A DNA stretch of 64,000 bases, from NCBI GenBank assembly GCA_964532285.1, contig CAZHHB010000001.1:77916-141915 (forward strand), given 5' to 3'. Every line of letters starts with the position of its first letter. The stretch's first letter is position 1. Both the position numbers and the translations under genes were made by a program. Of this stretch, positions 3,085-53,234 are shown piece after piece. Under the pieces are notes generated by a model that ran no database searches, had not been told where the DNA came from, and saw only the letters and a list, made by a program, of their open reading frames with translations. The stretch comes from an uncultured Candidatus Saccharibacteria bacterium. Its GTDB lineage: Bacteria > Patescibacteriota > Minisyncoccia > Phycocordibacterales > PALSA-1337.

Positions 3085-3092
3085 GATCTTAT

Positions 3093-3122
3093 GCCGAAGG
3101 TACCGAGCGTAGCGAAATGTCC
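3093..3122 (+). repeat. degenerate third copy of the 29-nt upstream motif found at xerC and pcrA
   Basis: gccgaaggtaccgagcgtagcgaaatgtcc matches gtcgaagacactgagcgtagcgaagtgtta at about 24 of 30 positions. The GTGTC/GACAC palindrome is lost and no gene follows. Confidence 0.4.
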
Positions 3123-3297: not shown

Positions 3298-3643
3298 CGC
3301 GACAGACACAGTTCTTTCCACAACAGGGTAGGCTCAATGCTCCTCTAGTTCGTTGTTGAAGTAAGCGGAAATATTTTTTCCAATCCTTCCATTGCTTGGG
3401 AATAATGACGGTGCAACTTGTCTCAATCACATATCAGTTCTCCTCCGGAGAACAAATTAATTTTAGACAACAGTGCCCATCGTCACCCACCAAAGAAATA
3501 GGAATGGTCTGGATTGATCAGATTCGATCTTTGGATCTGACGGTTCGTTTGTTCTTTCATTTTCGCTCGACTTCGAAGGCCGCGGTATGTACTTCTTTCT
3601 GAATTACCTCTACGCGGTTTTTCTTTTACTTGAAATAAAGTAT

Positions 3644-3803
3644 CGTAAAGTGGAACATTCCATGACGACACCCCTTTCGGAGCGCTGCTGAAGACCAACT
3701 CCGCATATTAATGACACCAGCGCGAGAAGAGACGGCCATGCGAGGTGTTCCGTTGTACGAGCAGGGCCGATCGTGGGTTCGGAATGGAATGTTCCACTTT
3801 ACG
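3644..3803. repeat. MITE-like element with a perfect 20-bp terminal inverted repeat and a ~120-bp GC-rich core
   Basis: cgtaaagtggaacattccat at 3644-3663 is the exact reverse complement of atggaatgttccactttacg at 3784-3803. The right arm abuts the xthA stop codon. Confidence 0.6.
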
Positions 3804-3815
3804 GCACTATTTAAT

Positions 3816-4603: not shown

Positions 4604-5536
4604 TTATCTCTTTTTGTCATGAAACTGTTTATGGACTCTTTTTAGCTCGCTATCTGTAATGTGAGTATATATTTGAGTTGTACCAATATTTGCATGACCC
4701 AGAAGCATCTGAACAGAGCGAAGATCGGCACCATTACCGAGTAGGTCTGTCGCAAAACAATGGCGAATTATATGCGGAGTAACCTTCTTGGAAATACCGG
4801 CCTTGATAGCATAGTACTTTATGATTCTCTCAATTGAGCGGGAGGTTAGTCCCGGATCGTCATTCATTTTCCTATCATCTCCGGCAATCTTTGCGAAGAG
4901 GGAATCTCCCATATCAACACGCTTATCAAGATATCTTCTCAAGGAAGACTTGGCGGTGTCGGAAATGAAAACTACGCGAACCTTGTCACCTTTTCCGCGG
5001 ACAGAGAGTTCATCGCCATGCAAATCTATATCACGAGGCAGGGAACAGAGCTCGGAGACGCGCAGACCAGTAGAAAAGAGTAATTCCAGAATAGCTTTGT
5101 CTCGAAGAGCCTTCAATTCACTACCTTTCGGAGCTTCTAGCAATCTTTTCAATTCATCCGAGCTGATGAGGTCTATGTGCCGTTCGCCAACCTTGGCAAG
5201 CTCTATATGTTCTGGCGAGAGGGTGCTGACATTCCTTCTGGCTAGATACTTCAGGAATGCTCGAAGAGAAATGAGATAATAATTCTGTGTTTTCTTCTTT
5301 AATGTAGTACCTACATCATTGCCACCGCGATTCCTGCCTGAAGATTGACGATTGAGCCAAAGACGAAACTCGCGAACAGTGTCTGGGGTTATAGCAGAAG
5401 GACTATCGCTCTTCAAAAAACCCAAAAAGCGAGTCAGATAATGGTCATAATTCTCAACAGTTTTGAGAGATCGTCCTTTTTCTATTTCAATATACTCTAA
5501 AAATTGCTGTTTTAGGGTTTTGAGATTGTGCGACAT
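4604..5536 (-). CDS. tyrosine site-specific recombinase XerC/XerD-like
   Basis: The C-terminus HIIRHCFATDLL..GADLRSVQMLLGHANIGTTQIYTHI carries the R..H-R-Y catalytic residues. The start is trimmed to the ATG at 5536 because the upstream 14 codons are the conserved 29-nt motif read from a GTG. Confidence 0.8.
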   Translation of the reverse strand: MSHNLKTLKQQFLEYIEIEKGRSLKTVENYDHYLTRFLGFLKSDSPSAITPDTVREFRLWLNRQSSGRNRGGNDVGTTLKKKTQNYYLISLRAFLKYLARRNVSTLSPEHIELAKVGERHIDLISSDELKRLLEAPKGSELKALRDKAILELLFSTGLRVSELCSLPRDIDLHGDELSVRGKGDKVRVVFISDTAKSSLRRYLDKRVDMGDSLFAKIAGDDRKMNDDPGLTSRSIERIIKYYAIKAGISKKVTPHIIRHCFATDLLGNGADLRSVQMLLGHANIGTTQIYTHITDSELKRVHKQFHDKKR

Positions 5537-5549
5537 GGCTTTATTGTAA

Positions 5550-5578
5550 CACTTCGCTACGCTCAGTGTCTTCGACAC
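5550..5578 (-). promoter_or_regulatory. conserved 29-nt motif 13 nt upstream of the xerC start codon
   Basis: In gene orientation it reads GTGTCGAAGACACTGAGCGTAGCGAAGTG. It contains the palindrome GTGTC-N3-GACAC. A copy with one mismatch lies 14 nt upstream of pcrA. Confidence 0.5.
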
Positions 5579-7099: not shown

Positions 7100-9241
7100 A
7101 TGAATAAAAAAGAATACTCTATTGAGGTCGGTGGCAAGACTTTGTCTGCTGAATTCAATGATCTCGCAGATCAAACCAATGGTTCTGTGATGGTTCGTTA
7201 TGGCAACACCATAGTCATGGCCACAGCCGTCATGAGTAAGGAATTAAAAGAAGGTGATTTTTTTCCATTAACAGTTGATTACGAGGAGCGTTTTTATGCT
7301 ACTGGGAAAATATTGGGCTCAAGATTTATGCGCAGGGAAGGACGACCGTCCACTGACGCCATCCTTTCTGGACGTATTGTGGATCGCACCATTCGCCCTT
7401 TATTCAATCAGAAAATGCGCAATGAAGTCCAAATAATATTGACCACTATCTCTGTGGATCAAGATGATCCTGATGTAGTCTCTGTCATTGCTGCGTCACT
7501 CGCTTTGGGAACTTCCGATATTCCATGGAATGGTCCTGTTTCTGCTGTACGCATGGCAAAAGATGGCCAATGGATCATCAATCCCAACTTCAAAGCTAGG
7601 GAAGAAGCGGGTATAAGCATGGAAATGGTCGCTTGCGGTAAAGATGGCATGATAAATATGATAGAGGTTGGTAGCAAAGAAATCAGCGAAGACACTATGA
7701 ACGAAGCTTTGTCTGAGGCTTCAAAAGAGATAGAGAAAATCCAGAAATGGCAATCAAAAATAATCGCGGAAATAGGTAAGAAAAAAGTAAAAGTGGAAAT
7801 AGCAGAACCTACTCCTGGGACACAAGAACTTTTCGATAAAGAAATAAAGCCGAAACTTGCAAAATATATCATGAGCAACACTCCTGGTCACAAGAGTATC
7901 AATGAAATATCAAAAATGTGGACGGATTTATTCGTAGAGAAATTCCCAGAAGGTAATGTCTTGCTTGCTATGGAAATCTTTGAAGACGCAGTGAATGAGC
8001 TCTTACATAGTGAAGCTATAGACAACGATAAGCGTGCCGATGGCCGAACAATGGATGAGATCCGCCCCCTATTCGCCAAAGCTGGTGGAATATCACCGAT
8101 ATTGCACGGCTCAGGAACTTTCTACAGAGGAGGAACTCATATTCTATCCGTCTTAACTCTTGGAAGTCCCGGTGATGCTCAGGTTATAGATGCTTTGATC
8201 GTCCAAGAAGACAAGAGATTCATGCATCATTACAATTTTCCACCATTCTCTACCGGCGAGACCGGTCGTGTAGGCAATACAAACAGGAGGATGATAGGTC
8301 ATGGAGCTTTGGCGGAAAAAGCCCTGCTTCCAGTCATTCCGGAAAAAGCAAAATTCCCATACACTATCCGCCTAGTATCTGAAGCGATGGCCTCCAACGG
8401 TTCAACTTCTATGGGTTCCGTCTGTGGTTCAACCATAGCTCTAATGGACGGAGGTGTCCCCATCAAAGCCCCTGTCGCAGGTATTGCTTCTGGTCTCATG
8501 ATGCGTAGTCCAAAAGAATACAAAGTCCTCACCGACATCCAAGGTCCAGAAGATCATCATGGCGATATGGATTTCAAAGTGGCCGGTACCCGCGAAGGCA
8601 TAACAGCTGTTCAAATGGATGTGAAAGTTGGCGGAATACCACTCAAAATATTGGCCGAGGCTTTCGAAAAAGCCAAGTCAGCCCGTTTCCGCATCTTGGA
8701 TGTTATAGAGAAAGAGATACCGAAGCCACGAGCAAATATTTCTCCTAGTGCTCCCGAGATAATAATGATGAGTATCAAGCCTGATCAGATAGGTCTCGTC
8801 ATCGGTAGTGGAGGAAAGACGATAAATGAAATCCGCGATGTCACAGGAGTGGATGATATCACAATAGAAGATGATGGATCCATCTTCATCACAGGCAAAG
8901 AGGGTAGTGCAGCCAAAGCCAAGGAAATTATCTTCAATATGACACGAGAATATCTGCCGGGAGAGAAATTTGAAGGTGAAGTAGTTCGCCTCATGGACTT
9001 TGGAGCCTTCGTGAAGATTGGTCCGAACGCTGAAGGACTTGTTCATGTCTCCGAGATAGCACCATTCCGTGTAGAAAGAGTTGAGACTTATCTGAAAGAA
9101 GGGGACAAAGTTCCTGTGGCGGTAAAAGAAATAGATGATAAGGGCAGGATCAATCTTTCTATTAAGAATGCCAAACCTGACTTTTTCACAAAGAAGGAAG
9201 AAACTCCAAAACCTAGGACGGAATTCAAGAAGAGGTTTTAG
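7100..9241 (+). CDS. pnp: polynucleotide phosphorylase
   Basis: 713 aa with two RNase PH domains and KH and S1 tails. Typical motifs are GRxxDE.R.L and FGAFV.I. Confidence 0.9.
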   Translation: MNKKEYSIEVGGKTLSAEFNDLADQTNGSVMVRYGNTIVMATAVMSKELKEGDFFPLTVDYEERFYATGKILGSRFMRREGRPSTDAILSGRIVDRTIRPLFNQKMRNEVQIILTTISVDQDDPDVVSVIAASLALGTSDIPWNGPVSAVRMAKDGQWIINPNFKAREEAGISMEMVACGKDGMINMIEVGSKEISEDTMNEALSEASKEIEKIQKWQSKIIAEIGKKKVKVEIAEPTPGTQELFDKEIKPKLAKYIMSNTPGHKSINEISKMWTDLFVEKFPEGNVLLAMEIFEDAVNELLHSEAIDNDKRADGRTMDEIRPLFAKAGGISPILHGSGTFYRGGTHILSVLTLGSPGDAQVIDALIVQEDKRFMHHYNFPPFSTGETGRVGNTNRRMIGHGALAEKALLPVIPEKAKFPYTIRLVSEAMASNGSTSMGSVCGSTIALMDGGVPIKAPVAGIASGLMMRSPKEYKVLTDIQGPEDHHGDMDFKVAGTREGITAVQMDVKVGGIPLKILAEAFEKAKSARFRILDVIEKEIPKPRANISPSAPEIIMMSIKPDQIGLVIGSGGKTINEIRDVTGVDDITIEDDGSIFITGKEGSAAKAKEIIFNMTREYLPGEKFEGEVVRLMDFGAFVKIGPNAEGLVHVSEIAPFRVERVETYLKEGDKVPVAVKEIDDKGRINLSIKNAKPDFFTKKEETPKPRTEFKKRF

Positions 9242-9248
9242 AGGGGTG

Positions 9249-9327
9249 TTATATTCGCTTCGCTCATATATCGTCGGCGCTCGGATTCTGTGAAAGCGAG
9301 CTTTCACGAATCCTCGCTTGACGCTAT
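9249..9327 (+). promoter_or_regulatory. conserved ~80-nt leader element, copy A, upstream of the membrane-protein gene
   Basis: ttatattcgcttcgctcatatatcg, then gcgctcgg, a hairpin at 9283-9313, then cctcgcttgacgctata, ending 11 nt before the ATG at 9338. It is homologous to 36984-37061 upstream of PBP1A, and the hairpin stems show compensatory changes between the two copies. Confidence 0.5.
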
Positions 9328-9337
9328 AATAATCGTA

Positions 9338-10867
9338 ATGGATGAAGACTCAACAATAATTGAACCTCAGCAAAAACAGGAAGTTCCTCAAACTGACCAA
9401 CCGGGGCAAGTCTCTTCTAGACCTGGTAGTGGAAATGTGTTTGAAATAACACCCAACCTAGATATTTCCCCGGTCAAGGAAACAATCGAGCCACCGAAAA
9501 CAAACTCAGGAACCATCACGGAAAACGAAGTTCCTCGAGACCAACTATACAATCAACTGCTCCAAGAATTGGGAAATGGATCTGAGGGGCCGAGTGAGAC
9601 ACCGGCAAATCCTTTTGTGGCCGCTATTACAGAGAATGTATCTGGCGAAAAGATTGTCCACAACGAACAAAAAAGACCTCTGGAAACAACTGCCGGGCCA
9701 AATTCTAGCTCCTTGGTAAGATCAATGCGGACCTATGAAAGCGATATCGCCGAAGTAATGTCGCGTGGACACACATCGACCGCTTCAATGATAATCGCCA
9801 AAAATCAAAAGGAGGATATGCTGAAGAGGGCTTCCTTCAGTAGATTCGCCGACAACAAACCAGCGACAATAGAGATCCCGTCAGCAAGAGGGGTGGGGAA
9901 AAACGCAATGGAAGGCGCACCAACGGAGAAGAAGATCGAGATGGCACCAGCGATGCAAGTGCCGCCAGTAACGGATGATTCTGTCCGACAATCACTTCAT
10001 ATATTTAGGAAATCATTTATCGTCATAATAAGTCTAATCTTGATAGGGGGAGGTGTCGCGGCGGCATATTATCTGTACAAAGTGAGTCCGCTTAGTACAT
10101 CGAAAAACCCAGCAACAAAAACAAATACCCCACAAACAACAACTTCGTCTACAAAATCACCGACAGGAGTGATACAGGTAGACATGCAGACTATTTTTCC
10201 GGTCGACGGTAAAAACGCAAGTGCTATATTGTCAGGATTGAGAACAGAGATAGACAAAAATCAACCCATGAATAGCATTCGAGAAATTATCCCGACCGAA
10301 ACCACCAACGGAACTGTGGTCCGTCTATCAGCGACAACCATGCTATCACGCATGGACATCACTCCACCTGATATTTTGACAAGGTCACTCTTACCATCAT
10401 GGATGTTGGGTGTGTATGCAGACAACAACGAGGAAAAGAATACTTTTGTCATCGTCACGAACAATTTCTTCCAAAACACTTTCGCCGGCATATTACAATG
10501 GGAGAGTGTGATGCCTGATGAATTAAAACAATTCCTATATGATCCGAGACAGCTGGAGGATATCATAACGGATACACAAACTGACCAGGGACAAGCCACT
10601 GTGTCTTCATCGACAACATCCACAGTGAGTTCAACGACAACATCGACGACTACGGAACCGATCTCTGTCCGCTCTTACTTCACGATACGAGGTCAATTCA
10701 AAGACAGAATAGTCAAAAATAGAGATGTGCGGGAATTCATAACCGATGATGGACAAATCCTGTTCTTATATTCATTCATCGACAACAAAAAACTCATAAT
10801 AGCCACGAGTGAATCCGTGATAAGCGAAATATTGTCACGACTTGAAAAGCAGACTTTTGTAAGATAG
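9338..10867 (+). CDS. hypothetical membrane-anchored protein with a Thr/Ser-rich linker
   Basis: One TM helix (IVIISLILIGGGVAAAYYLY) and a low-complexity T/S-rich stretch. No family was recognised. The start is trimmed to the Met after the leader element. Confidence 0.35.
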   Translation: MDEDSTIIEPQQKQEVPQTDQPGQVSSRPGSGNVFEITPNLDISPVKETIEPPKTNSGTITENEVPRDQLYNQLLQELGNGSEGPSETPANPFVAAITENVSGEKIVHNEQKRPLETTAGPNSSSLVRSMRTYESDIAEVMSRGHTSTASMIIAKNQKEDMLKRASFSRFADNKPATIEIPSARGVGKNAMEGAPTEKKIEMAPAMQVPPVTDDSVRQSLHIFRKSFIVIISLILIGGGVAAAYYLYKVSPLSTSKNPATKTNTPQTTTSSTKSPTGVIQVDMQTIFPVDGKNASAILSGLRTEIDKNQPMNSIREIIPTETTNGTVVRLSATTMLSRMDITPPDILTRSLLPSWMLGVYADNNEEKNTFVIVTNNFFQNTFAGILQWESVMPDELKQFLYDPRQLEDIITDTQTDQGQATVSSSTTSTVSSTTTSTTTEPISVRSYFTIRGQFKDRIVKNRDVREFITDDGQILFLYSFIDNKKLIIATSESVISEILSRLEKQTFVR

Positions 10868-10876
10868 AATTGTGAT

Positions 10877-11239
10877 ATGAACAAAAAAGACACCGAACCC
10901 TTCAAGAAGAAACTAGAAGCAGAAAAAGCTGAGCTAGAAAAGGAGCTCTCTTTGGTCGGACACAAAAACTCTAGCAACCCAAACGGCTGGGAAGCCACAA
11001 CCAGCGACTTAGAAGTTGATTCTGCCGACGAAAATGAAGTCGCAGACAAATTCGAAGAGATGGAAGGGAATACCGGCATTATAGACAAGCTAGAGAAAGA
11101 ACTCAAAGAGATCGACTCAGCCTTAGATCGTATCGCGGAAGGCAAGTACGGCTTGTGCGAATTTTGCGGTAAACCCATAGAGCCAGAACGCCTAGAGGCA
11201 AACCCTTCTGCTCGTATTTCTATAAAACACAAACACTAG
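10877..11239 (+). CDS. DksA/TraR-family protein (C4-type zinc-finger region, degenerate)
   Basis: Coiled-coil N-terminus followed by ..GKYGLCEFCGKPIEPERLEANPSAR, resembling the DksA/TraR C-terminus. The second CxxC is missing. Confidence 0.55.
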   Translation: MNKKDTEPFKKKLEAEKAELEKELSLVGHKNSSNPNGWEATTSDLEVDSADENEVADKFEEMEGNTGIIDKLEKELKEIDSALDRIAEGKYGLCEFCGKPIEPERLEANPSARISIKHKH

Positions 11240-14117: not shown

Positions 14118-14146
14118 GTGTCGAAGACACTGAGCGGAGCGAAGTG
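14118..14146 (+). promoter_or_regulatory. conserved 29-nt motif 14 nt upstream of the pcrA start codon
   Basis: GTGTCGAAGACACTGAGCGGAGCGAAGTG differs at one position from the copy in front of xerC. The orientation and spacing to the ATG are the same. Confidence 0.5.
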
Positions 14147-14159
14147 CTAAACTACCGTG

Positions 14160-16094
14160 ATGACCACCTTAAATGAAGCGCAGGAAAGGGCAGTAACGAC
14201 CACCGATGGACCGGTTTTGATTGTAGCTGGGGCGGGAGCAGGTAAAACGAGAGTTATCACGCACAGAATATTGAATTTAATCAAAAAGGGTGCTGAACCG
14301 CGTTCCATATTGGCGATAACATTCACCAACAAATCCGCCAAGGAAATGCGGGATAGGGTTTCAGCCTTGCTGACTGATGATAAAGGCCTCAATCTGCCTA
14401 TTTCCATGACAAGCAGACCGTTCGTAAGCACATTCCATGCTTTGGGTGTCCACATTATACGAGAAAATGCTGGACTCTTGGGACTGACACGACATTTCAC
14501 AATATACGATCGTTCAGATTCGAAAAAAGTCATCAAAGAGTCAATGATCCAGTCGTCAGTTGATCCGAAGAAGTTTGAACCTGGAACTGTGTTGAACATG
14601 ATCTCAAGAGCCAAGGGTGAGGGATTTGGCAGGCTAGAATACGCAGATCATGCCAAAGACTTTACCGAGGAGATGGTGGCTGGTATTTGGGAGAAGTATG
14701 AGGCGATATTGGCAAAAGAAAAAGCTCTTGATTTCGATGATTTGCTCTTGAAAACTGCTCAACTCCTGGGAAGGAATGAGGCTGTGCGAAAACATTATAG
14801 TTCCACATGGAAATACATCCATGTCGATGAATACCAAGATACAAATCGTGTTCAATATCAGATAGTAAAATACTTGGCAGAGGAACATCGGAATATCTGC
14901 GTCGTGGGAGATGCTGATCAAAACATATACAGCTGGAGAGGAGCTACTATAGAAAACATATTGAATTTTGAGAAGGATTATCCAGAAGCTACTGTTATCA
15001 CACTAGAAAAAAACTACAGATCAACAAAAACCATACTTGCGGCGGCGAATAATGTCATAGAAAAGAATCGTATGCGCAAAAAGAAAACTTTGTATACAGA
15101 CAATGATCATGGAGATAAAATTTCACTCTTGGTTTCGTATACCGATGCAGATGAAGCGCGTATGATAGCAGACACGGCTCGCGAAATAATCGAAAAGGGG
15201 ACTTCTCCCAGAGAAATTGCCATCTTGTATAGAACAAATTTCCAATCTCGTATCTTGGAAGAGGCATTTATCAAGAAAAATATCCCTTACCAGATGCTCG
15301 GTACGCGTTTCTTTGAAAGAAAAGAAGTGAAGGATGTTTTGTCGTACATTCGAGCGGCTTTGAACAGAGATTCCATGGCAGATATAGGCAGAATCATCAA
15401 TGTGCCGACGCGTGGCATAGGCAAAGCGACGATTGCGAAGGTTATGTCTGGGGCAGAGGCGTCATTGCCGCCAGCAATGAAATTAAAAATCTCTAATTTC
15501 TGGAAACTGCTTGATGATATAAGTAAAGAAATCTTGGAAAAGAAACCTTCAGAGTCAGTAAGATTCGTCATCCGAGAAACGGGTATTGAGAAACAATTAC
15601 TAGAAGGGGACAGTGAGGATGAAGAGAGGCTGTTAAATATTCGTGAACTAGTTTCTGTGGCAACACAATACGATCACCTGAAGCCAGAAGAAGGCATTGA
15701 ATCCCTACTAGCGAATGCAGCTCTGGCGACAGATCAGGATGATTTACAGAAAAATGAAGACGCTGTGAAACTGATGACGGTTCACGCATCGAAAGGACTT
15801 GAGTTTGAATATGTTTTTATCGCTGGATTGGAACAGGAACTATTTCCATTCAAACATCTGGATGAAGAAAATATAAACGAAGGCGAAGAGGAGGAGGAAC
15901 GCCGTTTGTTCTATGTGGCTTTGACTAGAGCGAAAAAGAAAGTATATTTAAGTTACGCTATCATTCGTACGATATATGGGGCTCAAAAAGTCAGTGCTCC
16001 GTCGGAATTCATTGAGGACATAGAAAAGAGGTTGATAGAGGATCATGTTCCAGAGAAGCCAAGTGGTGCAAAAGCGTTATTTATTGATTTTTAA
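14160..16094 (+). CDS. pcrA: UvrD/PcrA/Rep-family ATP-dependent DNA helicase
   Basis: Walker A GAGAGKT, the DEYQDTN motif and helicase motifs III-VI. Confidence 0.85.
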   Translation: MTTLNEAQERAVTTTDGPVLIVAGAGAGKTRVITHRILNLIKKGAEPRSILAITFTNKSAKEMRDRVSALLTDDKGLNLPISMTSRPFVSTFHALGVHIIRENAGLLGLTRHFTIYDRSDSKKVIKESMIQSSVDPKKFEPGTVLNMISRAKGEGFGRLEYADHAKDFTEEMVAGIWEKYEAILAKEKALDFDDLLLKTAQLLGRNEAVRKHYSSTWKYIHVDEYQDTNRVQYQIVKYLAEEHRNICVVGDADQNIYSWRGATIENILNFEKDYPEATVITLEKNYRSTKTILAAANNVIEKNRMRKKKTLYTDNDHGDKISLLVSYTDADEARMIADTAREIIEKGTSPREIAILYRTNFQSRILEEAFIKKNIPYQMLGTRFFERKEVKDVLSYIRAALNRDSMADIGRIINVPTRGIGKATIAKVMSGAEASLPPAMKLKISNFWKLLDDISKEILEKKPSESVRFVIRETGIEKQLLEGDSEDEERLLNIRELVSVATQYDHLKPEEGIESLLANAALATDQDDLQKNEDAVKLMTVHASKGLEFEYVFIAGLEQELFPFKHLDEENINEGEEEEERRLFYVALTRAKKKVYLSYAIIRTIYGAQKVSAPSEFIEDIEKRLIEDHVPEKPSGAKALFIDF

Positions 16095-16158: not shown

Positions 16159-16935
16159 ATGAAACTGCAACCGAAAAAATCGTTAGGACAACACTTCTTA
16201 AATTCCAAACATGTACTTGATCAGATTATTTCGGCTGGAGAGATCAAGAGTGGTGAAAGTGTGTTGGAAATAGGCCCTGGTACGGGTATTTTGACAACTG
16301 CATTATTGGAAGCGGGCGCAAAAGTCATTGCTGTAGAAAAAGATAGACTGGCATGTGAATTACTAAAGAGTAAGTTTTCAAGACAAATTGCCGACAAACA
16401 ACTTGAACTGATTGAGGGAGATATTCTAGATGAAAAAACTTTCAACTCTTACGCACTAATCGCCAATATCCCTTATTACATCACCGGCGCTATCTTAGAA
16501 AAATTCCTAGAGTATGAACCTCGACCCAACCGTATGGTTTTATTGGTACAAAAAGAGGTTGCGGACCGCATCGTGGCTTTGAATGGGAAGGAAAGTGTTC
16601 TGTCCATATCTGTAAAAGCTTTTGGTACGCCGAAAATAATCGCCAAAGTACCACCAGGAGCATTTACACCACCACCAACAGTTGATTCAGCGATACTTTC
16701 AATCAAAAACATCAACGACAATCATTTTGTAAATAAATTAACCGGCAAAAAGGCTGATGTATCTGAGTTTTTCAAAATAGTCAAAGCGGGATTCGCCCAT
16801 AAGCGTAAATACCTGATCCGTAATCTTGAGTCTGTAATCGCGCCAGAGAAACTCTCACAAATCTGGCAAGAAAATAAGTTTGATCCGAAGATTAGGGCTG
16901 AAGATCTCAAGTTAGAACAATGGTTTTGTTTTTGA
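16159..16935 (+). CDS. rsmA: 16S rRNA (adenine1518/1519-N6)-dimethyltransferase
   Basis: Contains KSLGQHFL, the GPG.G.LT SAM motif and NIPY. The start is trimmed to the ATG at 16159. Ends with a TGA stop. Confidence 0.85.
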   Translation: MKLQPKKSLGQHFLNSKHVLDQIISAGEIKSGESVLEIGPGTGILTTALLEAGAKVIAVEKDRLACELLKSKFSRQIADKQLELIEGDILDEKTFNSYALIANIPYYITGAILEKFLEYEPRPNRMVLLVQKEVADRIVALNGKESVLSISVKAFGTPKIIAKVPPGAFTPPPTVDSAILSIKNINDNHFVNKLTGKKADVSEFFKIVKAGFAHKRKYLIRNLESVIAPEKLSQIWQENKFDPKIRAEDLKLEQWFCF

Positions 16936-16940
16936 GCCCA

Positions 16941-17096
16941 GCAAATATGTTTTTGTGACAGTCTGCGGTACTCGCTCCGTGAAATTGCTAGGTAAAAGGC
17001 TCAGGAATTGTAAACAATTCCAACGACATTCGCCTTTTACCAAGCAATTTCCACTGCGCTCAGACATGTCCTCGACTGTCACAAAAACATATTTGC
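16941..17096. repeat. structured repeat element, copy 1: 23-bp perfect outer inverted repeat around a 111-bp conserved core
   Basis: The outer arms gcaaatatgtttttgtgacagtc and gactgtcacaaaaacatatttgc are exact reverse complements. The core at 16964-17074 matches 37530-37640 at 110 of 111 positions. The core folds as a long stem (gaaattgctaggtaaaaggc / gccttttaccaagcaatttc) around the hairpin ggaattgtaaacaattcc. Confidence 0.7.
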
Positions 17097-17106
17097 CGAG
17101 CTATAA

Positions 17107-34437: not shown

Positions 34438-36972
34438 TTACTGCGTCGTGAAGTTTATTGAAGTCTGAACTTTGTTATATGCCGTATCGTAAACCGTTAC
34501 CGACAGGGTATTGTTCGATGTTAGACCACTGACACTCACATCGGCAGGGACAAAAGATATATTTAATGGATCGTTTTCTTTCGTCAGGACATATTTATTG
34601 TTCAGGTACACTTCACTTTTCTTGGCTGGATAAGGACCTGTTATTTGCAGCTTAATTGATAGTAACTGCTGAGGATCAATACTCGTATTGTTTGCAGGTG
34701 AGACGATCGTTAGCTGCGGCATCTTTTCCGAAGTGTGGACATCATCGGTGGCAGATATTGGAACAGTGGAGGAACCAACCTCTTTGAACTCTGGATGACT
34801 CTGTTTCCATGTATCAAACCATTTCCTGACACCAAATTCCCAATAAGCATATTGTGAATCATTTGTTGGGGTGGTTGGGGCTGGTCCTTGGGGATCATCT
34901 TTGTTTACCCAATGTAAAATCGTGTGTACATTATCGAAGACAATCTCCTTAGTCGTTTCTGGTGGGGTATATTGAGTCGCTAGTTTTCCAGATACAGTGT
35001 CTATTTTATAAGAATACCCACCTTGCCAGATACCACGAAGCACTGGTTTGCCCTCGGTTATCGGTGGTAATGGCTCTTCAAAATTGCTTGGAGGATAATT
35101 CTTCGCTACTTGTGACATGAAAGCACCCCAAAGAGGAGAGATTATAAGCCCAGCCACATTATGTTGCATCGGTATGTTGTCGTTATTACCGGCCCAAGCG
35201 CCCACAACAAGGTCGGAGGTGTATCCAACCGTCCAGACATCTCTATAGTCGTTTGTGGTACCAGTTTTGATAGCTACAGGCCTGCCAACACTTTCTCCTA
35301 TTGGTTTCAGACTATTCATACGGACATCGGTATCTGAGAGAATGCTGGAGATCTTACGAGCAATCTCAGGATCAAGCACTTGTGCCGGATTGGTTGTTGA
35401 TTTTTCCAAGACTATATCCTTCCTATCACGAACTTCTAATATAGAGCGGTATGGGTTTCTGATTCCATCGTTGGCAAACACACCATAGGCACTTGTAAGG
35501 TCTAGAAGTTTGACTTCGCCACCTCCTAGGACCAATGTTAATCCATAACGGTTTGGATCATTGAGGCTTGTGATGCCCATATCTTTGGCGGTTTGGATTG
35601 ATTCTGGTATGCCTGCCAGATACAAAGCTTTTACCGCTGGAATGTTGCGAGATTGCGCTAGGGCTGTGCGAATCTGCAAAGGTCCCTCAAAAATATCATC
35701 ATATTCTCCCGGCATATAACAAACTTTTACTGGGTCATCTGTTGGGTTTATAGGTTTTCCCTCGGGGGTGCAGTGTGTTGAGAATTCTGTTTCGGCATCA
35801 AAGAGGACTGTTTCTGGTGTGTAGCCTTTTTTGAATAGAGTGGCGTACACGAACGGTTTGAATGTAGAGCCTGGCTGGCGTTCTGCTAATGTTACATTGA
35901 AATTGCCGTCTATCTTTGGATCAAAATAGTTTCGTGAACCAACCATAGTCAAAATATCTCCGGTTTTTGGATCAATGGCGATCATGGCAGTATTGCTGGC
36001 ATTGAAGTTTGTAGCTAGGGAAGATCCAAATTTCGTTATCACATCCTCAGCTTTTTGTTGCATGCTGTAATCCAGTGTGGTTATAACTTTGAGCCCACCA
36101 TTACTAACAGCGTCCTCGCCATATTTTTGTATCAGATAATCCCTGACAAACATTACAAAATGTGGAGCCCTGATACCGCTGGCATCTTTTGAAAGGAATA
36201 AAACATTTTCCTTTTTGGCATTGTTGTATTCTTCGGTACTGATCATTCCCAATGCCTTCATGCGATCAAGGACGATCTTCTGTCTCTGTGTGAGAGCGTC
36301 TTTGTGTAAACCATAAGGCGAAAAATAGGTTGGCGCCTGAGGTATGGCTGCCATATATGCAGATTCTGCCAACGATAGTTCCTTGGCTGGTTTGCCGAAG
36401 AAGGCTTGACTGGCTTCTTCTACTCCATACATTGTTCCGCCATAAGGGCTTTCGTTGAGATAAGCTTCAAGTATCTGATCTTTGCTTATAGCTCTGGTTA
36501 ATTTTATTGCCAGGACAAACTCTTTGATTTTGCGTGTAATAGTCTTGTCTTGTGTTAAAAGAGAGTTTTTGACTACCTGCTGAGTGATTGTGGATGCCCC
36601 CTGACTGTATTCGCCAGACAGGAAATCGGCGAGGAGAGCCCGAATGATAGATGTCGGTTCTACACCGATATTGTTGTAGAAGTTTGAGTCTTCTATGGCA
36701 ATGGCGGCCTTGCCGAGATAAGGAGACATTTCAGAGAGGGGAATGATGGTCAGTTTTACATTCATCCCGGTGTCATATAATAGAATTGTTCCAGTGCGGT
36801 CGTATATCTTTGTAGACTCAATAACCTTTCTTGTCTGGAAAGAATTCAGGTCAGGCATACGCAGAGTTGCTACCCAGAGTGCTATAAGACCGATTAGCAC
36901 AAAAATAGCCGATATTCCTAACAGGATCACGGTTTTCAAGAAGCGGAGCCTCTTTTTTCTGTGATGAGACAT
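34438..36972 (-). CDS. bifunctional class A penicillin-binding protein (PBP1A-like), with a ~200-aa C-terminal extension
   Basis: GT51 motifs EDSNFY and GASTITQQ. Transpeptidase motifs STFKP, S.N and KTGTT. N-terminal TM anchor. Confidence 0.85.
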   Translation of the reverse strand: MSHHRKKRLRFLKTVILLGISAIFVLIGLIALWVATLRMPDLNSFQTRKVIESTKIYDRTGTILLYDTGMNVKLTIIPLSEMSPYLGKAAIAIEDSNFYNNIGVEPTSIIRALLADFLSGEYSQGASTITQQVVKNSLLTQDKTITRKIKEFVLAIKLTRAISKDQILEAYLNESPYGGTMYGVEEASQAFFGKPAKELSLAESAYMAAIPQAPTYFSPYGLHKDALTQRQKIVLDRMKALGMISTEEYNNAKKENVLFLSKDASGIRAPHFVMFVRDYLIQKYGEDAVSNGGLKVITTLDYSMQQKAEDVITKFGSSLATNFNASNTAMIAIDPKTGDILTMVGSRNYFDPKIDGNFNVTLAERQPGSTFKPFVYATLFKKGYTPETVLFDAETEFSTHCTPEGKPINPTDDPVKVCYMPGEYDDIFEGPLQIRTALAQSRNIPAVKALYLAGIPESIQTAKDMGITSLNDPNRYGLTLVLGGGEVKLLDLTSAYGVFANDGIRNPYRSILEVRDRKDIVLEKSTTNPAQVLDPEIARKISSILSDTDVRMNSLKPIGESVGRPVAIKTGTTNDYRDVWTVGYTSDLVVGAWAGNNDNIPMQHNVAGLIISPLWGAFMSQVAKNYPPSNFEEPLPPITEGKPVLRGIWQGGYSYKIDTVSGKLATQYTPPETTKEIVFDNVHTILHWVNKDDPQGPAPTTPTNDSQYAYWEFGVRKWFDTWKQSHPEFKEVGSSTVPISATDDVHTSEKMPQLTIVSPANNTSIDPQQLLSIKLQITGPYPAKKSEVYLNNKYVLTKENDPLNISFVPADVSVSGLTSNNTLSVTVYDTAYNKVQTSINFTTQ

Positions 36973-36983
36973 TAGAAACTAGT

Positions 36984-37061
36984 ATAGCGCCAAGCGAGGA
37001 TTTATGAAAGTTTATTTTCATAAAATCCGAGCGCAGGCGATATATGAGCGAAGCGAATATG
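36984..37061 (-). promoter_or_regulatory. conserved ~80-nt leader element, copy B, upstream of PBP1A
   Basis: The reverse complement matches copy A block by block: ttatattcgcttcgctcatatatcg .. gcgctcggatt-hairpin-aatcctcgcttgGcgctata. The hairpin stems differ by paired compensatory substitutions. It ends about 12 nt before the PBP1A ATG. Confidence 0.5.
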
Positions 37062-37064
37062 ACA

Positions 37065-37403
37065 CTACTGCTCCCATTTGTCACCAAAAGGGTTGAGTTC
37101 GTCGTCATCCAAACTAACTTCTTCCGATGTGGTTTCGTCAGTTTCTTCTTCTGGGATGAGGGGGTCAACTTCGGGTTTTTCGTCAGTACCAATGACTGGC
37201 TCTGGGAGATCGAGCTCCAAAGGTTTCTTGGATTTGGTTGGTGGAATATCCATGACTTCTTCCGTCTCGGTATGAGATTCCTCCACACGTGTCTCACTTT
37301 TTGTTTTTTTGTTTTGAGCGTGTTTTGTTGGCATACACTTAGTTTTTACATTGCTAAATTTAGTGCGTGCATATGTTGTAACAAAGACGCAATCCTTTTG
37401 CAA
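37065..37403 (-). CDS. acidic hypothetical protein
   Basis: K-rich N-terminus and a D/E-rich C-terminal half. No family recognised. Confidence 0.3.
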   Translation of the reverse strand: MQKDCVFVTTYARTKFSNVKTKCMPTKHAQNKKTKSETRVEESHTETEEVMDIPPTKSKKPLELDLPEPVIGTDEKPEVDPLIPEEETDETTSEEVSLDDDELNPFGDKWEQ

Positions 37404-37500
37404 GAAAGGGGAGTTGGGGATAATGATGAAGTTTCGAAGCGGGAAACGATATTACATTCCGAACCCACGATCGGCCTTGCTCGCGCCACAGAGTAGCTCA

Positions 37501-37670
37501 CAAGGCGAATAATAGTTCCTCTCGCCAGCCTGCGGTACTCGCTCCGTGAAATTGCTAGGTAAAAGGCTCAGGAATTGTAAACAATTCCAACGACATTCGC
37601 CTTTTACCAAGCAATTTCTACTGCGCTCAGACATGTCCTCGGCTGTTTCGAGGAACTATTATTCGCCTTG
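37501..37670. repeat. structured repeat element, copy 2: 21-bp perfect outer inverted repeat around the same 111-bp core
   Basis: The outer arms caaggcgaataatagttcctc and gaggaactattattcgccttg are exact reverse complements. The core at 37530-37640 matches copy 1 with one mismatch. It lies just downstream of ruvC. Confidence 0.7.
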
Positions 37671-38192
37671 CCGTCTTAACCCACCTCTCGCTGCGTGTGT
37701 GAGTGCTACAGCAATAGCATCGTATTCATCGTCAACCCTTTTCTTTTTTGTCATTGCGACCAGCAAATCCACCATTTTTATGATACGCGACTTGTCACTG
37801 GAGCCATCGCCTGTTACCGCAACTTTTATCTCCATTGGAGTATATTCAAATATAGGAATATCTCGTTTGATAGCCTCATGCATGATGATGCCGCGGATCT
37901 CCGAGACACGCATAGCAGTCTTTTGATTTTTCGTTATGAATAAATTTTCAATTGCTAAAACATCCGGTTTATATTCATTGAAGACGCGGTCAACTTCCAT
38001 ACCGACTTTTTTAAATCTAGAGTAGATATCTTCTTTTGAAGAAGTTTGTAGACACGATGAATACAATACAGTTTCTTTGCCCTTCGTGGGTTTTTCAATC
38101 ACGGCAATACCGAGGCGATCATAGCCGGGATCTATTCCCAGGATTCGAAGTCTTGCGCCAGATTGAACTTTATTCGGCATTGGTGAAGACAT
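37659..38192 (-). CDS. ruvC: crossover junction endodeoxyribonuclease RuvC
   Basis: ILGIDPG motif followed by acidic catalytic residues. Confidence 0.8.
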   Translation of the reverse strand: MSSPMPNKVQSGARLRILGIDPGYDRLGIAVIEKPTKGKETVLYSSCLQTSSKEDIYSRFKKVGMEVDRVFNEYKPDVLAIENLFITKNQKTAMRVSEIRGIIMHEAIKRDIPIFEYTPMEIKVAVTGDGSSDKSRIIKMVDLLVAMTKKKRVDDEYDAIAVALTHAARGGLRRQGE

Positions 38193-52215: not shown

Positions 52216-52682
52216 AGAATACCCCAGTACTTAACAGCTGTTCCTTTGCGTAAAACTAAGTTATAACACATTCAAATCGGCTTTTGTATAGGTAACACCA
52301 AGTTTGTATGTTTTCCATAGAATATCCATAGTTTTCTAATAACTCGTCTTACCCGACATATATCATAGCTCTATCATAGGTCTTTCCAGTAACATTCATG
52401 GTTTTTCTATCTTTAAATCTTAGGTTTTCTAAGGTTCTCTAAGTTATTCACAAATAATCATTTGGTGCTATGATACGGATACAACTGAATATCGTGAAAG
52501 TAGCCTAAACTAGTAAGTAATTATTAGCATGGCAAAAAATCCCATGGAAGATACTGAACCCCACGTTCAGCGCTCTTCCATGGGTTATACCGGGAAACTG
52601 GTATAGAAGCCGTAAGGCTTTGCTGGCGTGGGGCTTAGTGTTTATACACTGACCCCCTACCATAAACTGTGGGTCTTTTTGC
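52216..52682. repeat. iteron-like direct repeats and a nested hairpin (candidate element origin)
   Basis: Repeated ccatagaata / catag units and ttctaaggttctctaag. A hairpin cccatggaaga..(ctgaac cccacg ttcag)..tcttccatggg lies at 52541-52585. Confidence 0.35.
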
Positions 52683-53234
52683 ATGGATAAGAAACAACTA
52701 CAAACAGAAAAGGAAAGTTTTGCTGAAGACGAGGTTTTGTTTTCGGTATTTCAAGGTGCACTTAACCGAGGTTATCCATATCTTGTCTATGAGAAAAACA
52801 CTGATGTAGAGAGAAGGGGAGACTTTAAGATCTACTTGTCAAAATTATTGAGAAAATATCAAGGACTTGTAATACAAAGTCCCGATAAAAATACGGACAT
52901 TATTTCGGATTTTCAAGTAGAGATAAATAGGTCTGAGTTCACTGATATTCTAAAGAAACAGACGATAACATTTGGGCGAGTCCAAAAACTTCTTAATCTG
53001 TATTTGAAGTACCATTGGATTTTTAATTGTGATGAAGACAATTTCGAACCGCCACATTGTCCAATCGATTCTATAATTCTTGGGGAAATAGGATGGGTCG
53101 GTCCTTCATGGGCAAATCCAAGATTCGGTAAAAGCGAATACGATAAAGCTATCGAGAAATGTAAGACGAAAGCCCATGGCGTGAAAATCGCAGAATGGGA
53201 GCTCGTAACATTTAATAATCGAACAAAGGAATAA
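52683..53234 (+). CDS. hypothetical protein
   Basis: 183 aa, no family recognised. Confidence 0.3.
   Translation: MDKKQLQTEKESFAEDEVLFSVFQGALNRGYPYLVYEKNTDVERRGDFKIYLSKLLRKYQGLVIQSPDKNTDIISDFQVEINRSEFTDILKKQTITFGRVQKLLNLYLKYHWIFNCDEDNFEPPHCPIDSIILGEIGWVGPSWANPRFGKSEYDKAIEKCKTKAHGVKIAEWELVTFNNRTKE

Follow-up and report, generated by a model that had tools for sequence, protein, structure and literature searches.

The 64,000-nt stretch of DNA analysed here, referred to as the window, comes from an uncultured Candidatus Saccharibacteria bacterium (contig CAZHHB010000001.1, positions 77,916 to 141,915) and carries two copies of an 86-nt intergenic element, one in front of a gene for a class A penicillin-binding protein (PBP) and one in front of a gene for a 509-aa protein. 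We consider it very probable that this element is a promoter cassette of leaderless genes with a hairpin maintained by selection, and not a leader of the mRNA made from that promoter. By sequence comparison the two copies are members of an old, apparently vertically inherited and sometimes duplicated promoter cassette of ~83 bp in Patescibacteria/CPR (candidate phyla radiation), found in Paceibacteria-type genomes. Judged from its motifs, the cassette consists of four parts: an extended -10-like box, (T)GnTATAWT; a GC-rich linker of 10-12 nt, CGCTNCGCTC; a left arm; and a right arm. The right arm is a predicted near-consensus sigma-70 promoter, which in the family has TYCACA or TTTACA as -35, a 16-nt spacer AATCCTCRCTTGNCGC and TATAAT as -10.

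The Two Copies in the Window

Copy A (9246-9331, plus strand) and copy B (36980-37065, minus strand) are each 86 nt long and share 85% identity. The 23-mer ATATTCGCTTCGCTCATATATCG and the 20-mer AATCCTCGCTTGRCGCTATA both occur exactly twice in the window, compared to 0.00 and 0.01 occurrences expected from dinucleotide shuffles. An earlier sequence-only reading had noticed two conserved copies at these same places, and this observation stands. A covariance-model search with filters off detected no third full copy in the 64-kb window. Both copies occupy the entire spacer between two genes, copy A from the PNPase gene to the 509-aa open reading frame (ORF) and copy B from a 112-aa ORF to the PBP gene. 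The parts of the two copies and the genes behind them are:

9247..9255, plus strand: left end of copy A, by its sequence an extended -10-like box (TGT-TATATT), 5 nt past the PNPase stop codon (9239-9241)
9254..9265, plus strand: linker 12-mer of copy A, TTCGCTTCGCTC, containing a GC-TNC-GC mini-hairpin (bottom strand GA-GC-GNA-GC-GA)
9267..9328, plus strand: long imperfect hairpin of copy A (TATA.CGTCG.GCG / GGATTC.GTGAAAG - loop - CTTTCAC GAATCC / CGC.TGACG.TATA), minimum free energy (MFE) -28.5 kcal/mol, z -3.0
9303..9330, plus strand: predicted sigma-70-type promoter in the 3' arm of copy A, -35 TTCACG at 9303-9308, 16-nt spacer, -10 TATAAT at 9325-9330, 10/12 matches
9338, plus strand: predicted transcription start of the copy A promoter, the A of the ATG
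9338..10867, plus strand: gene 3' of copy A, encoding a 509-aa protein with one hydrophobic segment and without a Pfam family; the orthologue at locus L010 has the same element
37056..37064, minus strand: left end of copy B, a TGT-CATATT box that follows immediately on the stop codon (37065-37067) of the preceding 112-aa ORF
37046..37057, minus strand: linker 12-mer of copy B, TTCGCTTCGCTC
36983..37044, minus strand: long imperfect hairpin of copy B, MFE -25.4 kcal/mol, z -4.5, with covariation in the family
36981..37008, minus strand: predicted promoter in the 3' arm of copy B, -35 TTCATA at 37003-37008, 16-nt spacer, -10 TATACT at 36981-36986, 9/12 matches, ATG at 36970-36972
34438..36972, minus strand: gene 3' of copy B, encoding the class A penicillin-binding protein PBP1A (transglycosylase and transpeptidase); the orthologue at locus L004 has the same element and the same upstream neighbour

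Two pairs of the apical stem differ between the copies with compensation (C-G/T-A and G-C/A-T), and a third compensated pair lies in the lower stem (CGTC/GACG versus CGCC/GGCG), by which compensation goes slightly further than the earlier reading had it. No compensation is seen for the differences in the loop and in one closing pair, so that the earlier statement that every change is compensated applies to the three pairs and not to the loop and the closing pair.

Structure and Covariation of the Hairpin

The whole element folds into a single long imperfect hairpin, which extends beyond the apical stem. Its layout is TATA. CGNCN. GCG, an internal loop, GGATTY, a bulged T and RTGAAAG, followed by the loop and the way back. 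In 24 copies, 14 of the 25 pairs had changed on both sides (52 cells), which none of 500 shuffles reached, and the real structure paired in 88% of cells compared to 33-49% for slid controls. Among 56 distinct copies this increased to 15 pairs and 114 double-change cells, again with 0/500 shuffles, while slid controls paired in 32-50% of cells; in this larger set covariation extends to 12 of the 13 pairs in the upper helix. The bulged T, a 3:1 internal loop (YTC/T) and three mismatches (T-C, T-T and T-C) are conserved within the hairpin. That the hairpin is under selection for pairing, as the sequence-only reading had proposed, is strongly supported by the covariation in both sets.

Comparison with Rfam, which had been suggested as well, gave no relevant match at the gathering threshold or at E <= 10 for the window, both copies and five other loci. 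A mir-3149 match in L037 was discarded since it is a TG-repeat lying outside the element. There is no U-tract after the stem, which is followed by UAUAAU, and a scan of both copies yielded no terminator-like site. Both results speak against the element being a terminator or insulator of the upstream gene that became fused to the next promoter. This explanation would account for the stable hairpin and for the at least 12 co-directional loci at which the element takes up the entire spacer and begins 1-10 nt after the stop codon. However, the lineage possesses canonical terminators of a stem and a T-run, several of them directly upstream of the element (e.g., at L015), and at least five copies lie between divergent genes. 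We therefore regard it as highly improbable.

The Right Arm and Predicted Leaderless Transcription

The sequence-only reading described the element primarily as an ~80-nt leader of the downstream mRNA, and secondarily as a structure that overlaps the promoter of a leaderless mRNA. The promoter scan and the spacing between the -10 hexamer and the start codon do not support the first description and make the second one its best-supported part. Since the predicted promoter lies within the 3' arm, a leaderless transcript would exclude the hairpin, which would exist as RNA only in transcripts that enter from upstream. As had been noted before, -10-like hexamers precede both start codons at 7-8 nt; TATAAT lies 7 nt before the ATG of copy A and TATACT 8 nt before that of copy B. 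Elsewhere in the family the start codon of an ORF is located 6-9 nt past the -10 hexamer at 20-22 of 28 genome loci and in 58 of 81 metagenome copies (32/39 full and 26/42 partial copies).

This geometry is also found in other genes of the window. The motif TANNNT peaks 6 nt before the ATG, with 11 genes at this offset versus ~1.5 per other offset and eight TGn-extended boxes, and only one of the 56 called genes has a Shine-Dalgarno-like motif. The genome appears to be largely leaderless, with initiation from a -10 located ~7 nt upstream as the norm. The terminal TATAAT of the cassette would be such a leaderless -10, and the hairpin would therefore lie upstream of the predicted start and outside that mRNA. 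Transcription start at the ATG is strongly inferred from the sequence.

Distribution and Conservation of the Family

An exact scan for the 20-mer of the left block, with one genome per species, recovered 26 loci in ~11 Patescibacteria assemblies, which are labelled Paceibacterota, Taylorbacteria, 'Saccharibacteria' TPA bins and Patescibacteria group. All 26 loci show one architecture, ending in GCTATAAT or GCTATACT. A metagenome scan, anchored on the right arm only, recovered 84 loci. Overall, the element was found in at least 11 Patescibacteria genomes and on ~60 metagenome contigs, in front of at least 62 gene families. The sequence-only reading had called for additional copies and for conservation at orthologous loci, and both were found. 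The PBP1A proteins of the window and L004 are 68% identical and their 4-fold sites 31%, while the element is 80% identical. For the 509-aa membrane protein and its orthologue at L010 these values are 42% (protein), 34% (4-fold sites) and 86% (element). Differences in the stem between orthologous loci are again compensated. Since the element remains 80-86% identical at orthologous loci in spite of saturated synonymous sites, we conclude that it is old, has been passed on vertically and is under constraint at ~65-70 of its 81 positions.

The family is variable in its composition. By a strict pattern 39 of the 81 distinct metagenome copies are complete (more are by eye), and the same strict test assigns 42 right-arm-anchored copies to those lacking part or all of the left half. 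By eye, ~15-20 metagenome copies retain the right arm AGCTTYCAYAAATCCTCRCTTGNCGCTATAAT alone, together with the ATG spacing and preceded by unrelated sequence, and others break off at intermediate points of the left arm; truncations were seen on the left side only. Between about a quarter and a half of the right-arm-anchored copies are thus incomplete on the left. Variants of the left block include TATAAT for TATATT, CGCTCCGCTC, CGCAAAAGCTC and others. Units are arranged in tandem arrays at L010, L018, L026, L052/L096, L091, L102 and L110, and their number differs at the orthologous gene for a VirD4/TrwB-like ATPase (MDDNR...), which is preceded by one unit in L006 (3758-3840) and by two in tandem in L026 (3802-3985) and L110 (633-819), one of these two-unit loci adding a truncated third. 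A subfamily of seven variants (L011, L012, L017, L026, L106, L108 and L110) carries an extra covarying stem in the left arm. This module of ~28 nt, ACCCAGTRGGCGAWYTKGCTRRWTCGTC, has a covarying 8-bp stem, a UGCU loop and a conserved top-strand G-T, and has entered the cassette at the pentamer CG^CTC in two places, the left arm (seven loci) and the linker (L041), which suggests a small insertable hairpin with a target preference. Furthermore, the tip is extended by a perfect palindrome in L033/L100, an arm is duplicated in L097, and the loop measures from 3 to >30 nt across copies. Judging from these variants, the family is dynamic, with duplication, truncation and tip growth.

Several of these features would also be expected of a domesticated or selfish palindromic repeat, a 'mobile promoter' resembling a miniature inverted-repeat transposable element and comparable to Correia elements, that became widespread through duplication or by inserting at TATA(-10) sites. 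Its arms would be kept complementary by template switching within the palindrome or by gene conversion, and not by a function of the hairpin. The element occurs in multiple copies in front of unrelated genes, forms tandem arrays of variable unit number at one orthologous gene, has truncated copies, a palindromic tip extension and an arm duplication, and is bordered at both ends by GCTATA direct repeats, which could be a target duplication or simply two -10 boxes. In addition, some stem variants are specific to a genome and common to its non-orthologous loci ('ATAT' in CAIRAF and 'GACT' in JBAZRG). We nevertheless consider such a repeat clearly unlikely. Firstly, copy number is low, with two per 64 kb here and 1-4 exact-anchor matches per genome, and identity within the genome is only 85%. 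Secondly, orthologous loci retain the element across saturated synonymous divergence, and template switching would erase the bulge, the 3:1 internal loop and the mismatches that are conserved. Thirdly, the outer ends are not inverted repeats, the left block being no part of the internal palindrome, and no transposase gene is found nearby. Lastly, the element is essentially absent from viral contigs (1 and 0 matches in two scans), for which reason phage or plasmid cargo was dropped as well. The possibility, raised in the sequence-only reading, that stem variants track a repeat subfamily thus applies to some genome-specific variants at non-orthologous loci, but the orthologous loci show independent compensated changes.

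The Left Box, the Linker and the Mirror Arm

Across copies the left box reads TATATT, TATAAT or TATACT, with A2 and T6 of the hexamer kept. It is preceded by a G at -14 in 67-82% of the copies and by TG in 36-57%; these frequencies greatly exceed chance, and they do so also where the T-run of a terminator abuts the box. It resembles the usual extended -10 of the genome, and in tandem arrays it is the -10 of the preceding unit. The left arm mirrors the promoter arm; in the leftward direction its spacer measures 19 nt (3 extra nt) and its -10 ends in G, and as a leftward promoter it is to all appearances disabled.

Together with the flanking TATAT/ATATA, CGCTNCGCTC forms a 21-nt hairpin with TATAT-GA-GC-GNA-GC-GA-ATATA as its bottom strand. 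The N of the triloop is the sole freely variable base, and in the 2-bp stem compensated A-T variants were seen in two copies. Classic motifs of hyper-stable DNA mini-hairpins are GNA triloops and tandem sheared G-A pairs. A second short stem around the linker (P1, TATAT/ATATA) was rejected, as it showed no covariation beyond shuffles; ACACT/AGTGT variants that might support it are largely forced by consensus bases of the -35 and the extended -10.

The linker sequence is also found outside the cassette. Its 12-mer has five intergenic sites in the window versus 0.3 expected, and the 11-mer GAGCGNAGCGA caps other hairpins and terminator-like stems, with 18 occurrences outside elements in 779 kb of related contigs versus ~1.5 expected. 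Examples on unrelated stems are L016 ~4823, L027 ~11180 (minus strand), L100 ~2400, L020 ~3525 and L072 ~1698 (minus strand). Some of these capped stems are terminator-like hairpins followed by T-runs, in which the 11-mer was apparently inserted with a duplicated GGGGG. Three related sites in the window are:

5542..5578: short related motif, not a full copy, GTGTCGAAGACAC-T-GAGCGTAGCGAAG-TGTTACAAT-N6-ATG on the minus strand, in the predicted promoter of the operon of an XerC-like recombinase and exonuclease III
14118..14154: second copy of the short motif, in the predicted promoter of the UvrD/PcrA helicase gene (14160-16094, plus strand)
3092..3120: third, weaker copy of the 12-mer motif, 3' of a gene of the CCA-adding/poly(A) polymerase family

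The two DNA-repair promoters share the 13-bp palindrome GTGTCGAAGACAC, a T, GAGCGKAGCGAAG and TGYTAMAMT-N6-ATG. Their 12-mer is the reverse complement of the cassette linker and lies within the promoter spacers, and the shared sequence is a candidate operator of a DNA-repair regulon.

For the cassette itself, a double-stranded operator would require a dimeric regulator that recognizes the inverted repeat, the 12-mer or both in ordinary duplex form and thereby controls a regulon. The symmetry centre at ~-40 from the predicted start would be in line with this, as would the conservation of unpaired positions (T32, YTC36-38, T79, T83-84 and C89) and the recurrence of the 12-mer, in either orientation, in the two DNA-repair promoters. 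However, a protein that reads bases does not require compensated stem differences within one genome, and a loop of 3 to >30 nt is incompatible with a fixed spacing of half-sites, which makes an operator very unlikely. Several known sites were compared and set aside. For a CRP/FNR site (TGTGA...TCACA) the spacing is at least 10 nt and variable; a DnaA box is matched by L009 alone; the half-sites of parS are in the wrong order; and IHF, sigma-54 and CIRCE/LexA boxes gave partial matches only.

Genes Downstream of the Cassette

The 80 distinct copies precede genes of 62 Pfam families. Recurrent among these are SecDF (7), pilin-type N-methyl proteins (6), PrgI (5), CorA (3) and AAA/FtsH-like proteins (3), followed by enolase, PBP1A, Ddl, MFS, PIF1 and VirD4/TrwB-like proteins with two each; SHMT is a single case. 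Transketolase, RadC, an amidase and a histidine kinase were recognized by eye from translations, not by a Pfam scan, and helicases are found downstream too. Functions in secretion and the cell envelope are prominent but not exclusive, and the recurrence reflects orthologous loci. The sequence-only reading considered both genes in the window to be cell-envelope genes. This fits PBP1A and the secretion and envelope genes that recur, but not the family as a whole, which includes enolase and SHMT; a regulon confined to the envelope was rejected on account of the 62 downstream families.

Possible Function of the Fold-Back

The explanation that we put forward for the cassette as a whole is tentative, and we give it slightly less than even probability. 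RNA polymerase would use the right arm and start 6-9 nt past the -10, at the ATG, to produce a leaderless mRNA. Selection keeps the left arm complementary to the right arm, and the left half would let the promoter region fold back, by which it could act in cis as a switch or insulator on the promoter. Extrusion of the region from -90 to -9 as a hairpin or cruciform under negative supercoiling would hide the -35 and the -10. Folding at the DNA level is slightly favoured, as a possibility that is well short of even, and pairing in a sense RNA that starts at the upstream -10-like box comes next in weight.

The composition of the stem shows little of the cis-regulatory RNA that the sequence-only reading had considered. 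Covariation is nearly all of the Watson-Crick kind; of 1455 cells, 19 (1.3%) are G-T versus 61 that are A-C, and the latter are thus three times commoner. The antisense (template) strand has the more stable fold in 48 of 56 copies with RNA parameters and in 56 of 56 with DNA parameters. Canonical terminators (a stem and T5-7) lie immediately upstream of many copies and several copies are situated between divergent genes, so that a general supply of read-through RNA cannot be assumed. An antisense RNA is unlikely as carrier of the better-folding strand, since -10 and extended -10 motifs in antisense orientation are not enriched in the first 400 nt downstream, and an antisense RNA from the symmetric -10 would start within the right arm and miss the covarying lower stem. 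GC skew in the orientation of the element is mildly positive at 45 of 64 loci, which places the folding strand mostly as leading-strand template, and a signal for the lagging-strand template or for priming was rejected on this ground. As evidence for the DNA level, the strand asymmetry is suggestive only.

A number of observations weigh against a DNA fold-back, and partly against the explanation as a whole. The strand asymmetry is partly one shared feature, the conserved pyrimidine-pyrimidine mismatches on the top strand, and it is confounded by the promoter constraint on the right arm, which leaves most deviations to the left arm. No such asymmetry would be expected of a cruciform, and its extrusion from a palindrome with ~12-16% mismatched cells would be energetically costly; natural examples are rare. 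The left box looks like a genuine extended -10 and would put both arms into sense RNA, and the subfamily with the extra stem has a conserved top-strand G-T wobble, which is an RNA-like trait. In related genomes the promoter arm is kept and the left half lost at the same gene (the SecDF loci L057 and L087/L105 versus L091 and L101), and the fold-back may therefore be dispensable for promoter activity. Lastly, genome-specific stem variants are shared at non-orthologous loci, so that the copies are not fully independent and there are fewer independent compensatory events than the cell counts indicate.

If the left box (TGnTATAWT) fires, the transcript would start in the linker and fold the long hairpin as a structured sense RNA, with the ATG 7 nt past the hairpin. 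Two forms of mRNA would then exist, one leadered and structured and one leaderless; the hairpin could stabilise the 5' end, cause attenuation or pausing, provide a site for RNase III or serve as a protein-binding leader. Of all the rival explanations this one lies nearest to the sequence-only reading. The left box is built like the ordinary promoters of the genome, each tandem unit begins with a left-type box, and covarying hairpins are most often RNA; the inserted extra stem, covarying in seven variants with a conserved top-strand G-T, also agrees with it. On the other hand, G-U pairs make up only ~1% of the cells and are outnumbered threefold per position by A-C mismatches. The sense strand is less stable in 48-56 of 56 copies, although this is confounded by the promoter constraint on the right arm, and the apical loops and the linker give recognised stable motifs on the other strand only. 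Moreover, there is no Rfam family, copies with only the promoter arm exist, and the hairpin has no Shine-Dalgarno or other feature to mask. We consider a structured sense RNA doubtful, though it is the strongest of the rival explanations.

Comparison With Known Elements

A search of a literature library gave no paper that describes the element, none that mentions leaderless promoters of Patescibacteria and none with the 12-mer in such a setting. Correia elements (NEMIS) of Neisseria are high-copy, near-identical and strain-polymorphic elements with true terminal inverted repeats and a TA duplication. They resemble the cassette as short palindromic intergenic repeats with TATA-containing ends, -10 boxes or functional promoters (a predicted function in the cassette), long hairpins and many unrelated neighbour genes. 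The cassette differs in that it is low-copy and conserved at orthologous loci over saturated divergence, and in its asymmetry, with a left block outside the palindrome and a start codon always 6-9 nt away. Mobile promoters ('promoter propagation in prokaryotes') are homologous promoters before non-homologous genes, within a genome and across relatives. The cassette likewise places the same promoter in front of non-homologous genes, but the concept involves no structure, whereas half of the cassette is the covarying complement of the promoter. ERIC/IRU, BOX and integron attC sites are also imperfect palindromes of 60-130 nt with conserved bulges, of which the structure is kept by compensatory change. 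ERIC and BOX have no fixed geometry from promoter to start codon of their own. Sites of the attC type have RYYYAAC/GTTRRRY core sites, promoterless cassettes and an integron integrase, none of which was seen at the cassette; the element ends are CATATATCG ... CGCTATAAT and not attC core sites, and the neighbours are core genes. The window encodes a single tyrosine recombinase, the Xer-like product (310 aa) of a gene at 4604-5536, which is 3.7 kb away.

Single-stranded DNA hairpin promoters, such as Frpo of the F plasmid, the minus-strand origin of M13/fd and the early promoters of phage N4, are found on replicons that enter or exist single-stranded. As in the cassette, the -35 and -10 lie in the stem of a template-strand hairpin with mismatches beside the -10, and the template strand folds better. 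However, the cassette is located at chromosomal core genes (the PNPase-PBP1A neighbourhood, enolase and SecDF), is essentially absent from viral contigs, and its template strand is mostly not the lagging-strand template. It is rather improbable that the cassettes are chromosomal promoters that are controlled by, or even recognised as, the fold-back of their own template strand, in a way similar to Frpo and N4 or as a cruciform that reads supercoiling. Such a fold-back would be nucleated by the hyper-stable GNA/tandem-GA DNA mini-hairpin and would serve conserved genes of secretion, envelope and central metabolism across the CPR lineage.

There is almost no experimental knowledge on transcription signals in Patescibacteria/CPR, which represent a large share of bacterial diversity, and the cassette provides a concrete strong-promoter consensus for leaderless genes. 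It also presents a deeply conserved partner sequence of ~45 nt for which pairing with the promoter is the sole detectable constraint. Covariation, usually taken as 'RNA structure', may here report a structure at the DNA level or linked to the promoter. This calls for caution in riboswitch-style screens of leaderless organisms, as a conserved sequence stopping 7 nt short of an ATG can turn out to be a promoter and not a leader.

Other Observations in the Window

The gene right after the 509-aa ORF (10877-11239) has a weak DksA/TraR zinc-finger match in the record of an identical public contig. A very stable hairpin of ~170 nt (MFE -78 kcal/mol, z -11.4), without an Rfam match, occurs at 16930-17105 and 37497-37675. 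Its 121-nt core is 98% identical in both copies, and the basal stems of ~29 nt differ but are each self-complementary. This resembles an insert of recent mobility that sits within two different palindromes, or else a repeat whose outer stem varies. A third, diverged palindrome at 3639-3808 has 56 nt in common with the flank of the second ~170-nt copy. Lastly, a LOOT RNA (RF03000, 98 bits), which is typical of Patescibacteria-type lineages, is located at 52502-52621, upstream of the ORF at 52683.

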